A DNA stretch of 13,364 nt, from contig JBHIAH010000076.1 in assembly GCA_046758505.1 (NCBI GenBank), positions 1 through 13,364 on the forward strand, in the 5' to 3' direction. Below, piece by piece: positions 5,248-11,765 of the stretch (position 1 is its first letter; every line of letters starts with the position of its first letter). The translations under genes were made by a program, and so were the position numbers. A model generated the notes under the pieces. That model did not search any database. It was not told the origin of the DNA and saw only the letters and a program-made list of their open reading frames with translations. Source of the DNA: Candidatus Methylomirabilales bacterium. Its GTDB lineage: Bacteria; Methylomirabilota; Methylomirabilia; Methylomirabilales; CSP1-5.

Positions 5248-6315
5248 CTACGATTTGGGTGGGGAAGGGGATCCGCGGAGCGCGTGGATGGCCTCGGCAA
5301 GAGGGGGACGGAGGACCCCCTGGTCCGTGATGAGGGCACTCACCAGCCCCGCCGGTGTGACGTCGAATGCGGGGTTGGCCGCCGGGAATCCGTCGGGCGC
5401 AATGGGAACACCTGCGATAGAGGTGATCTCTTGCGCGCCGCGCTCTTCGATGGGGATCTGGGTGCCCGTCGGCAAGGTCGGATCCACGGTGGAGAGGGGG
5501 GCGGCGACGTAAAAGGGAACATGGTGATACCGGCACAGGACCGCCAGGGTGTACGTGCCGATTTTGTTCGCCACGTCCCCGTTCAGGGCGATGCGATCCG
5601 CTCCGAGGATGACCGCGCGCACCTCACCGCGCCGCATGAAGTCGCCGGCCATGCTGTCGGTGATGAGGCGGGAGGGGATCCCGAGGCGGTCGAGTTCCCA
5701 GGCGGTCAACCGGGCCCCCTGCAGCACGGGCCGGGTTTCATCTACCAGGACCTGAATCCGCTTCCCGTGTTCCCAGGCGGCCCGGATCACACCCAGCGCG
5801 GTCCCGTACCCGACCGTGGCCAGCGCGCCCGTATTGCAGTGGGTGAGCAGGGTGTCGCCGCTCTCGACCAGCCGCTGGCCATGCTCCCCGATGGCGCGAT
5901 TGCAGGCCAGATCTTCGCGGTGCATCGTCAGCGCTTCCTCGACGAGGCGCTGCTTGAGGAGGGGGAGCGAGAGATCCCGGTGCTTGTCGGCGACGGTCAA
6001 GACTCGGTCCAATCCCCAGAACAGGTTTCTCGCTGTCGGGCGCGTGCGGGCCAGCAGATCAGCGATCCCCTTGAGGTCCCGGAGGAATGAGGCCACATCT
6101 GGTGCGTGCACGCTCTGGGCGCCGAGGGCGAGTCCCATGGCTGCCGTCACCCCGAGGGCGGGGGCGCCCCGGATGCGGAGGCTTCTGATCGCCTCGGCCA
6201 CCGCCTCGACGTCCCGGCAATCGATGTAGACCTCTTCCCGAGGGAGACGTGTCTGGTCGAGGAGACGGACACCCCCGTCGGGAAGCCACGTAAGCGTTTG
6301 GATCTCTTGCGGCAT
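5248..6315 (-). CDS. mtnA: S-methyl-5-thioribose-1-phosphate isomerase, 355 aa
   Basis: Motifs LDQT, IRGAPALG, RPTA, THCNTGALAT, ETRP, GADRI, NKIGT and NPAFDVTP. Start at ATG 6315 behind AGGAGG. Confidence 0.96.
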   Translation of the reverse strand: MPQEIQTLTWLPDGGVRLLDQTRLPREEVYIDCRDVEAVAEAIRSLRIRGAPALGVTAAMGLALGAQSVHAPDVASFLRDLKGIADLLARTRPTARNLFWGLDRVLTVADKHRDLSLPLLKQRLVEEALTMHREDLACNRAIGEHGQRLVESGDTLLTHCNTGALATVGYGTALGVIRAAWEHGKRIQVLVDETRPVLQGARLTAWELDRLGIPSRLITDSMAGDFMRRGEVRAVILGADRIALNGDVANKIGTYTLAVLCRYHHVPFYVAAPLSTVDPTLPTGTQIPIEERGAQEITSIAGVPIAPDGFPAANPAFDVTPAGLVSALITDQGVLRPPLAEAIHALRGSPSPPKS

Positions 6316-6335
6316 GTGCTTTCCTCCTGGGCCAT

Positions 6336-6363
6336 ACACTACCAATCCTCCCCCTGCTGTCAA
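6336..6363 (-). promoter_or_regulatory. Putative sigma70 promoter for mtnA-slt
   Basis: Perfect TTGACA (6363-6358) - 16 nt - TAGTGT (6341-6336), with a TG extended -10 element. Confidence 0.6.
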
Positions 6364-6532
6364 CGGAAATTTCCCCCCCCTGAACCGTGTGCATTTCGAG
6401 AACTGCAATTGGTCCCGTTCGGTTCGGCCTACCGCTCGAGTCCCGACTGCTCCTTTCAGTGAGAGAAGACGCCCTGGAGCCTTTCCGGTCGGCCTGTCTG
6501 ATATTCGTGATCCTTCCCCTGCTCCCTTCACG

Positions 6533-6545
6533 CAACCTATTGATA
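6533..6545 (-). promoter_or_regulatory. IHF-binding site consensus
   Basis: Minus strand reads TATCAA-TAGG-TTG, an exact WATCAANNNNTTR match. It sits 17 bp upstream of the sigma54 motif, the usual position. Confidence 0.65.
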
Positions 6546-6562
6546 TTACAGGTGAATCGTGC

Positions 6563-6577
6563 TGGCACAGTCTTTGC
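6563..6577 (+). promoter_or_regulatory. sigma54 (RpoN) -24/-12 promoter
   Basis: TGGCAC-AGTCT-TTGC, with GG at 6564-65 and GC at 6576-77 at canonical spacing. Predicted TSS about 6589. Confidence 0.8.
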
Positions 6578-6637
6578 CATATAGGAAGCAGCTAAACCGT
6601 AAGGCCGTTTCGTCTCAGAAGAGTTCGGAGGAAGGAG

Positions 6638-6769
6638 ATGGGGAGTATCTACTACCGCACCCTGATTTCGGGGATCCTCCTCTTCCCGTGGTCGCTCGTG
6701 GGCCTGATGATCGTGGGAACCGTGTGGGAGCGGGCCAAGGTCCGCGTGCGCATCCGGAATCGTTCGTAG
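6638..6769 (+). CDS. Uncalled 43-aa small membrane protein MGSIYYRTLISGILLFPWSLVGLMIVGTVWERAKVRVRIRNRS
   Basis: GGAGG (6627-6631) lies 6 nt before the ATG. An uncharged hydrophobic stretch (residues 8-30) is followed by an Arg-rich tail. Third codon positions are mostly G/C. Flanked by a promoter and a terminator. Confidence 0.75.
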   Translation: MGSIYYRTLISGILLFPWSLVGLMIVGTVWERAKVRVRIRNRS

Positions 6770-6774
6770 CGAAA

Positions 6775-6810
6775 GCAAAAACCCCCGGAAGTGAATCCGG
6801 GGGTTTTTGC
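6775..6810. terminator. Bidirectional intrinsic terminator (43-aa ORF on +, groEL on -)
   Basis: Perfect 15-bp inverted repeat GCAAAAACCCCCGGA-agtgaa-TCCGGGGGTTTTTGC, which gives a U-tract on both strands. Confidence 0.9.
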
Positions 6811-6862
6811 AGAAGGCAGGGGGGCGTTCACGGGATCGTGTCGGCCCCCGGAGTCACGCCTG

Positions 6863-8500
<1,638 letters not shown>

Positions 8501-8985: not shown

Positions 8986-9012
8986 TTAGCACTCGATTGT
9001 GATGAGTGCTAA
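8986..9012. promoter_or_regulatory. CIRCE element (HrcA operator)
   Basis: Perfect TTAGCACTC-N9-GAGTGCTAA upstream of groES. Confidence 0.98.
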
Positions 9013-10618: not shown

Positions 10619-10634
10619 TGGCATACCGCTTGCA
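10619..10634 (+). promoter_or_regulatory. sigma54 (RpoN) -24/-12 promoter
   Basis: TGGCAT-ACCGC-TTGCA, with GG at 10620-21 and GC at 10632-33. Predicted TSS about 10645. Confidence 0.8.
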
Positions 10635-11050: not shown

Positions 11051-11234
11051 CCGCACCGGTAGCCCTCATCCGCCGGCGTTGAGAATCCCCACCACCGTTC
11101 ATCCTGAACAGATTCTCGTTCGTACCTTGGTTGAATAGCGCTCTGGCACGGGGCATTCCCCATACCAATCGTTGGACAATGATGGCCGGTGGCGTAGGGA
11201 ATAGGGGTTGTCCGTTCGTGAGCGGGGGACAGAC

Positions 11235-11765
11235 ATGCTACGCTCGTTGGTCCAGCTCGTATTCGGCAGTCGGCCCGTCTCCTTCGAGAGTCCATTCTCG
11301 GTCAATGAAGCAGTGCGTCGCCTCGCCGCATCGGTAAGCAGAAGCGTGTTTCGCACGGTGTTTCGAGAGGCGGTCATCGGCAAGGTCGCGGCCTCGCGCG
11401 TTATGCTATATCGCTATCGGCCGTTTCTGCGGAATTCATTCCTGCCTGTTTTTGTGGGATCGTTTCAGTTCCGAAACGGGGTGACCAAGCTCGACGGACG
11501 ATTCTCGATGCACGGGTCGGTCAAGGTTTTTATGGCCTGCTGGTTTGGGATGTCCCTCCTCCTGCTCCTCGTCGCGGGTATCTCGTGGATCTCGAATCCG
11601 GCGCAGACGGACGGGGAGGTCTCCGCCGTGACCGTTGGACTGGGCATGGTGCTTTTCGGCATTGCGCTGGTCTTCCTTGGAGAACGCTTCGGCCGACCTG
11701 ATGTAGAGTATATTTCTGCCGTGATCCGCCAGGCCATCGGTGTTGACGGGGTCCATCCGCGGTAG
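11235..11765 (+). CDS. Hypothetical membrane protein, about 176 aa (soluble N-domain plus two C-terminal TM helices)
   Basis: Protein-like composition with hydrophobic segments VFMACWFGMSLLLLLVAGISWI and VTVGLGMVLFGIALVFLG. ATG 11235 follows GGGGGA. Confidence 0.7.
   Translation: MLRSLVQLVFGSRPVSFESPFSVNEAVRRLAASVSRSVFRTVFREAVIGKVAASRVMLYRYRPFLRNSFLPVFVGSFQFRNGVTKLDGRFSMHGSVKVFMACWFGMSLLLLLVAGISWISNPAQTDGEVSAVTVGLGMVLFGIALVFLGERFGRPDVEYISAVIRQAIGVDGVHPR

Follow-up and report, generated by a model that had tools for sequence, protein, structure and literature searches.

The spacer between an mtnA-like gene and groEL in a Methylomirabilales genome was proposed, in an earlier note made from the sequence alone, to hold a hidden gene for a 43-aa membrane microprotein under sigma-54 and IHF control. 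Is this gene real, what would switch it on, and on what might its product act? The Methylomirabilales are the order that includes the NC10 methane oxidisers, and gene regulation in this order has been little studied. The locus was analysed in a window of 13,364 nucleotides (the whole stretch of DNA that was read), in related genomes, and in protein and metagenome collections.

Results

The microprotein gene between mtnA and groEL

The GGAGG ribosome-binding site, the 43-aa ORF, and the hairpin right after its stop codon were all found where the earlier note had placed them (Table 1). The Shine-Dalgarno region was purine-rich in every orthologue compared. The hairpin folded on both strands, as had been claimed, and a C5/G5 hairpin resembling it was present in 8/8 aligned orthologues. 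A simple terminator scanner gave no entry for this hairpin, which we infer to be a bidirectional intrinsic terminator common to the peptide gene and groEL. The divergent IF-2B-family neighbour, presumably mtnA, was preceded by a TTGACA block that is probably its sigma-70-type promoter and that scored below the threshold of the promoter scanner. The flanking mtnA-like orthologues were 80-85% identical and lay beside the peptide gene in 10 other loci of the genus. Elsewhere in the window, a perfect inverted repeat, presumably of the CIRCE type, was found upstream of groES-groEL; it suggested HrcA control and is ordinary. A second, looser sigma-54 box was followed by a predicted membrane ORF for which no Pfam match was found.

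Table 1. Features of the peptide locus, of the rest of the window, and of other loci mentioned in the text (plain coordinates refer to the window)
Feature	Location	Strand	Remarks
mtnA-like gene (IF-2B family)	5248..6315	-	Pfam PF01008, E 5e-87; divergent neighbour, outside the peptide-gene unit
TTGACA block with weak -10 hexamer	6336..6370 (TTGACA 6363-6358)	-	TCAACGGAAAT invariant in 8/8 aligned orthologues
Conserved upstream element, candidate enhancer	6481..6508	+	~82 nt before the -24 box
IHF consensus WATCAA-N4-TTR	6533..6545	-	exact; 1 match in window vs 0.09 expected
Sigma-54 -24/-12 box TGGCAC-N5-TTGC	6563..6577	+	only strict box in window; 0.01 expected
Shine-Dalgarno region	6627..6637	+	GGAGG 6627-6631, ATG 6 nt further on
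ORF of 43-aa single-pass membrane microprotein (predicted), ILLFPW family	6638..6769	+	hydrophobic residues ~9-29, basic C-tail
Hairpin, 15-bp stem	6775..6810	both	-29.0 and -29.6 kcal/mol; A-/T-tracts either side
groEL	6863..8497	-	Pfam PF00118; convergent neighbour, outside the peptide-gene unit
Inverted repeat, presumed CIRCE type	8986-9012		upstream of groES-groEL
Looser sigma-54 box	10619-10633	+	second box in window
185-aa predicted membrane ORF	11208-11765	+	downstream of the looser box
ILLFPW-TIGR04073-like fusions	L109:2808-3257, L110, L111, L090		genus g8; divergent domain
122-132-aa four-cysteine protein	L095:98-463 (G000 C15:1297-1662), L051:2027-2422, L070:3248-3631
Unnamed ~92-103-aa protein	L054:2219-2539, L055:2664-2972, L058, L066, L067		directly before the peptide gene
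Unnamed 69-71-aa protein	L086:4300-4506, L038-L047		genus g6
Four large kinase-like proteins	G000 C26:2-2575, C41:2-4231, C27:18940-23019, C7 near 64464		genome of the window (G000)

The earlier note had suggested inspecting the mtnA-groEL spacers of relatives, and a conserved gene was found there. The genus comprises 14 genomes (the counts include G007, flagged unpublished), and in all 12 with an assembled locus the ORF lay between mtnA and groEL, intact in 11 and frameshifted in one (G012). G002, G013, and G014 of the sister genus were uninformative because the 3' end of groEL was missing from their assemblies. Over the 25-codon ungapped core of the 11 intact orthologues, pS was 0.34 and pN 0.19 (pN/pS 0.55); these values are uncorrected, the pairs are not independent, and the one-codon gap of one clade inflates pN. 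Over the 14-codon centre, pS was 0.30 and pN 0.065 (pN/pS 0.22). The variable columns at codon positions 1/2/3 numbered 16/6/20, and of the two alternative plus-strand frames, one was interrupted by stops in 10 of the 11 sequences and one in 8. The hexamer score of the ORF was 17.3, equalled by 19/2505 ATG-ORFs of similar length in short frames. Judged by its conservation and by these substitutions, which have a coding pattern, the peptide gene is real.

Lesions were observed in one subclade: the frame was shifted at the C-run of the F-P codons in G012, which is L014, and in L161; 12 nt lying between short direct repeats were deleted in L171; and the ATG was lost in L125. They may reflect decay, slippage, or assembly error. 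A nonsense codon was carried by the peptide gene of L152. In genus g8, seven genomes carried the family and 13 gave no match at E <=1e-5; several genomes without it were 99-100% complete. By these absences and the subclade lesions, the gene is dispensable in places.

A three-part promoter and the sigma-54 machinery of the host

Sigma-54 promoters are silent without an activator. The canonical box and the exact IHF consensus described before were both present, the latter on the minus strand, which had been left unsaid. The box was retained in 12/12 genus loci and in 16/16 metagenome loci with mtnA or groEL context. The best IHF match stood exactly at -30, with 0-2 mismatches, in the eight orthologues tested (of 12); an IHF site at -30 with at most one mismatch was present at only 11/55 strict boxes of the genome and in 20/2000 random windows. 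A further conserved element, absent from the earlier note, was found upstream with its anchor at -79 to -82 in 8/8 orthologues tested. A matrix built without this genome gave 25.6 bits for the element and at most 11.5 bits for the other 102 sigma-54 boxes; with all 103 boxes scored, no enhancer in common with the genome's other sigma-54 promoters was found, and the element is apparently private to the peptide-gene promoter. By its position, it is a candidate site for a sigma-54 activator. As aligned across the orthologues, the promoter is conserved as a unit of three parts, namely the upstream element, the IHF site, and the sigma-54 box.

Confirmation of rpoN and ihfAB in the genome had been called for. 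In this genome of 2.99 Mb, rpoN was found (PF04552, E 2e-64), together with 16 strong PF00158 matches (E <=2e-47) among 19 rows for the enhancer-binding ATPases and five HU/IHF genes. Of these five, one scored best as IHF alpha (106.7 bits) and another as IHF beta (100.6 bits); read as partial translations, both stayed below the curated cut-offs (111 and 115). With rpoN and IHF-like genes present and the frame conserved in the genus, the claim of a real gene of the sigma-54/IHF type was upheld. The promoter type itself is ordinary for the host, since 55 strict and 103 looser sigma-54 boxes were counted genome-wide. By eye, many of the ORFs downstream of these boxes look like PilZ proteins, receivers, and kinases, which agrees with the association of sigma-54 with the cell exterior in general (PMC3162934). 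No PF04012 match for pspA was found in this 96.8% complete genome, though sigma-54 and many activators are present. The genome also encodes four large kinase-like proteins with a common N-terminal multi-TM domain, which occurs in this genus only (10/66 genomes); a strict sigma-54 box stands before each.

The ILLFPW family in the Methylomirabilales

A family profile search recovered 312 proteins at E <=1 (the best 120 listed) and 105 representatives of 50% clusters at E <=0.001. With a profile of divergent members (E <=1e-5), the family was found in 40/66 Methylomirabilales genomes with up to four copies each, a tally that includes the unpublished G007 and G021 and may have missed copies because 26 candidates were scored per genome. 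The copy of G029, one of the 40, had no in-frame start. At the same threshold, 0/185 other genomes of the phylum gave a match; weaker hits on the Rokubacteria side (best E 2e-4) were rejected as chance, the two inspected being TM helices within ~700-aa frames. When 185,579 species genomes were scanned with a narrow pattern, seven loci came back, under titles of Methylomirabilota/NC10 or uncultured bacterium. Because most protein matches carry no taxon, the occurrence of the family beyond the phylum was tested only loosely. Within the phylum genomes compared, the family appears to belong to one order of uncultured bacteria only. The genome of the window carries a single copy without paralogues (next best E 0.2).

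The protein motif was retained across five families despite divergent DNA and new contexts. Copies lay beside an activator and HAMP cyclase, a cNMP-binding gene cluster, PilZ, thioredoxin, an SLT gene, and others (72/182 called neighbours were scanned), and several adjoined sigma-54 activator genes (L087, L079, L071, and L089). The convergence on groEL noted before holds at this locus but is the local synteny of one genus, not a general trait, the other copies lying in unrelated neighbourhoods. A functional tie to groEL or mtnA was dropped because the gene sits in other places in other families. A strict sigma-54 box was found within 220 nt of 29/65 genome copies, the other 36/65 being without a strict proximal box, and at 41/55 metagenome loci (22/31 non-redundant), compared with 53/2786 genes of this genome; the genomes compared are related and do not count as independent. 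A link to sigma-54 is thus characteristic of the family without being universal.

The gene can no longer be called hidden. The exact protein is already a called gene on five protein-collection contigs, and NCBI and JGI list several of its relatives under the name "hypothetical protein". That the peptide lies outside every named family was borne out: no fitting family was found in Pfam, NCBIfam, and PHROG for the peptide or in the rows shown for 95 members (25 of 28 Pfam rows), and PDB sequences gave no match (best E 0.42). The most widespread database match was an unnamed PHROG (10/95 members, best E 0.002), and the best ESM Atlas matches (0.80 and 0.85) were hypothetical clusters, which are leads only. 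No paper on the family was found among the literature listings and abstracts searched; the peptide may be listed nameless in small-protein catalogues such as PMC11364881.

In four genomes of genus g8, fused forms were found in which a basic linker joined the peptide to a signal-peptide-like segment, with a TIGR04073-like domain after it (E 1e-9 to 1e-11, under cut-off). This layout fits a cytoplasmic C-end of the peptide. No fused forms of 141-2000 aa were found among 8000 scored candidates, a weak blank because genomes later proved to contain fusions of 149-153 aa. TIGR04073 was present in 6/6 genomes of family f4. A C-terminal sorting signal related to PEP-CTERM was considered and rejected, as the peptide stands alone or N-terminal in the fusions; CTERM matches were scattered and weak (at most 2/95 members), and exosortase was found in 0/6 genomes of family f4, all six of which bear the peptide. 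Several unnamed proteins were observed next to peptide genes. One, with four conserved cysteines and without a Pfam or NCBIfam family, occurred in 34/66 order genomes and adjoined the peptide gene in two families with differing orientations. The ~92-103-aa protein had a variant sigma-54 box upstream, and a domain looking like it follows the peptide in one chain in protein P0165. In genus g6, a highly conserved 69-71-aa protein precedes the peptide gene, with a divergent PycTM-like gene and a cNMP-binding gene alongside.

Conservation, topology, and predicted structure of the peptide

Among 86 sequences below 70% identity, Y6 (77/84), L14 (83/86), F16 (79), and G27 (78) were conserved, and K or R occupied position 32 in 83%. 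P17-W18 was invariant, which is partly an artefact of the search profile and of using PW as the anchor of the table. The conserved block was centred on Pro-Trp between two hydrophobic arms of ~11 residues, and positions 9-26 were free of charge, whereas the tails varied freely in length and sequence. Conservation on one face of the helix was not found (permutation p = 0.29); the block was contiguous instead. In 95% of 216 proteins, the C-side carried more positive charge than the N-side (means +4.1 vs -0.25), which supports the single-pass N-out/C-in topology predicted in the earlier note. Of the alternating basic tail described there, the net positive charge was conserved but the alternating pattern was not. 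AlphaFold2 predicted one continuous helix (DSSP) for residues 2-42 with a pLDDT of 82 and a pTM of 0.40, and the pLDDT reached 90-92 over residues 11-30. The homodimer prediction scored 0.06 against a mark of 0.42 and gave no verdict. Foldseek returned 0 matches for the model, and the VIA fold search returned generic helices only (best Z 5.5), as a single helix matches generically.

Candidate partners

Candidate membrane partners were compared with the peptide by their distribution, and none held up. The sigma-54-preceded membrane kinase domain, confined to one genus, did not co-distribute with the peptide, nor did exosortase. The 122-132-aa neighbour protein was found in 0/21 genomes of family f5 and TIGR04073 in 0/15 of the host's family. 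PspA was set aside, as it was not found in this genome.

Discussion

We propose that the peptide gene would be transcribed as a monocistronic unit when an enhancer-binding ATPase occupies the upstream element at about -82 and IHF loops this activator onto the sigma-54 polymerase at the box. The mRNA of ~220 nt, with a 5' end expected near 6589, would be translated from an ordinary ribosome site and would end at the hairpin common with groEL. The product would be a single-pass inner-membrane helix with its N-terminus out, its basic C-terminus in, and Pro17 at mid-membrane, where the helix would be kinked. The core of Y6, I13-L-L-F-P-W18, and G27 would most likely pack, within the membrane, onto a larger membrane protein whose gene lies elsewhere, possibly a sensor kinase, a cyclase, or a transporter, which would be modulated when the activator fires, as in AcrZ and MgrB. 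Specific contact is favoured over bulk hydrophobicity because L14, F16, P17, W18, Y6, and G27 are near-fixed while the tail is free. The regulatory microprotein acting on a membrane complex that the earlier note had put forward is thus also the reading favoured here, but no partner was found. In our judgement, there is about an even chance that the peptide acts much as AcrZ or MgrB do, as a Pro-kinked N-out/C-in helix, dispensable and induced by a signal, that would bind a partner in the membrane and modulate it. Several results speak against this modulator: the conservation does not lie on one helix face, as a simple docking face would predict, the AlphaFold2 helix is continuous at the DSSP level with a pTM of 0.40, the subclade lesions occur, and more than half of the genome copies have no strict proximal box. 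AcrZ depends on shape (PMC7267776), unlike the fixed ILLFPW motif.

The peptide might instead be membrane-active, a stress-induced product of the type I toxin-like or depolarising kind that slows growth when the activator fires, with transcriptional control replacing the antisense RNA. The silence of a sigma-54 promoter without its activator could stand in for an antitoxin, and the single best fold of this genome's mRNA paired the Shine-Dalgarno sequence with the LLF codons. Size and shape fit the definitions of such toxins (<60 aa, hydrophobic helix, charged C-tail) in the parts of PMC8309996 and PMC7472228 that were available; its scattered paralogues also resemble those type I toxins of the former that associate with the membrane, and a short hydrophobic helix with Pro, a charged C-tail, and a bidirectional terminator are shared with Fst/Ldr as described in the latter. 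The computed mRNA structure speaks against such a toxin. The opening energy of the start region had a median of 10.0 kcal/mol at 21 loci, vs 10.1 kcal/mol in 80 ordinary genes; 0/21 loci exceeded 95% of their own synonymous-codon nulls for sequestration of the ribosome-binding site, with 13.5 kcal/mol in this genome against a null mean of 14.6; and no consensus pairs were found in the 5' region of nine orthologues. The PxxxG motif of Fst/Ldr was found in 0/216 proteins (PxxxxG in 100/216 and Trp before the tail in 65/216). Residues 9-26 show no polar or charged stripe, and no member was found in phage, plasmid, and viral collections. As for an antisense RNA, the scanner reported no sigma-70-like promoter in 6250-6950, and the best trans-complementary match had an E of 0.13. 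Unlike the Fst/Ldr loci, the peptide gene converges on the groEL transcript, and no convergent antitoxin unit was found. By these sequence tests, the peptide falls outside the type I systems, which weakens the toxin-like option of the earlier note, and we consider a membrane-active peptide unlikely.

It is distinctly unlikely that the peptide instead serves a single membrane complex, either as a small subunit of its structure or as an assembly factor, like CydX, CcoQ, or KdpF. The single-pass N-out/C-in form and the fixed intramembrane motif would suit such a role, and CcoQ and CcoS have the same topology in the available text of PMC12648545. Yet in the annotated contexts the gene never lay within a membrane-complex operon, it has its own enhancer-type promoter, and up to four divergent copies occur per genome while several 99-100% complete genomes of the order have none that was found. 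The contiguous block raises another possibility, namely that ILLFPW forms a turn, as a re-entrant hairpin or a self-associating lipid-binding unit that shapes or organises the membrane. Its Pro-Trp centre, its two hydrophobic arms, and the lack of one-face periodicity would suit a turn, which may resemble the proline hairpins of stomatin- or Pmp3-type proteins. The strong C-over-N charge bias and the single helix modelled over residues 11-30 argue against a turn, and Pmp3 and SPFH were absent from the Pfam rows shown for 95 members (25 of 28); we think it improbable. That the transcript acts as a small RNA, or that the ORF is not translated, is barely credible. One reverse frame was open in 10/11 orthologues and some copies carry lesions, but the synonymous bias, the protein motif kept in divergent DNA, the in-frame fusions to another protein, and the Rfam search, with no match above threshold and only chance hairpin matches, oppose it.

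The modulator reading could be extended to an order-wide intramembrane signalling code, in which peptide copies behind different sigma-54 enhancers, each with its own activator, have the Pro-Trp core in common and address one shared class of membrane target. We doubt that this is so. If it were true, the dose of peptide would add up several two-component inputs within the membrane, and a secreted domain would have been joined to some of the copies. Whatever its function, the microprotein family defined here is marked by a sharp motif, by a promoter conserved in three parts, and by a range that is narrow, within the Methylomirabilales. The promoter is a direct starting point in the search for the activator and for the signal that induces it, and the fixed motif is one in the search for the partner. 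Signal-induced single-pass modulators are already well known as a kind, and the hosts are uncultured.

AcrZ, which modulates the RND pump AcrB in E. coli, is one close comparison. According to PMC7267776, it is an N-out/C-in protein whose bend at P16 is needed for AcrB binding, and it relies on shape and hydrophobicity rather than on specific side chains. Here, too, a small single-pass N-out/C-in helix with a mid-membrane Pro (P17) is predicted, and five RND genes above the Pfam cut-off are present in the genome. The ILLFPW family differs in its fixed L-F-P-W, its multiple paralogues, and its sigma-54 control, and the AcrZ family gave no row for the peptide or in the rows shown for 95 members (Pfam and NCBIfam), nor among PDB sequences. 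MgrB, in the part of PMC12648545 at hand, is induced by its kinase and inhibits it; with regulators of this type, the peptide shares a length below 50 aa, one TM helix, and a signalling pathway that would switch it on. MgrB acts via periplasmic cysteines, whereas no more than about five residues of the ILLFPW peptide would be periplasmic, and 1/216 proteins had a Cys in its N-terminal part. PspG is a membrane protein under sigma-54/IHF control. In E. coli, its gene forms a single-gene unit outside its operon and is controlled by the enhancer-binding protein PspF, as described in the available part of PMC3041696, and the peptide gene would share this stand-alone enhancer-driven layout; the lack of a pspA match here and of a family match to PspG sets them apart. 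CD1980.2 of C. difficile, compared by its description in the accessible text of PMC13724677, likewise has scattered paralogues, differing control, membrane association, and no known partner, but differs in its four-helix model, its C-terminal membrane helix, its riboswitch control, and its near-identical paralogues. The ILLFPW peptide is a member of neither the AcrZ, the MgrB, nor the PspG family, and we regard the ILLFPW peptides as a new family, though one whose kind of protein is already known, on the favoured reading the signal-induced single-pass modulator.
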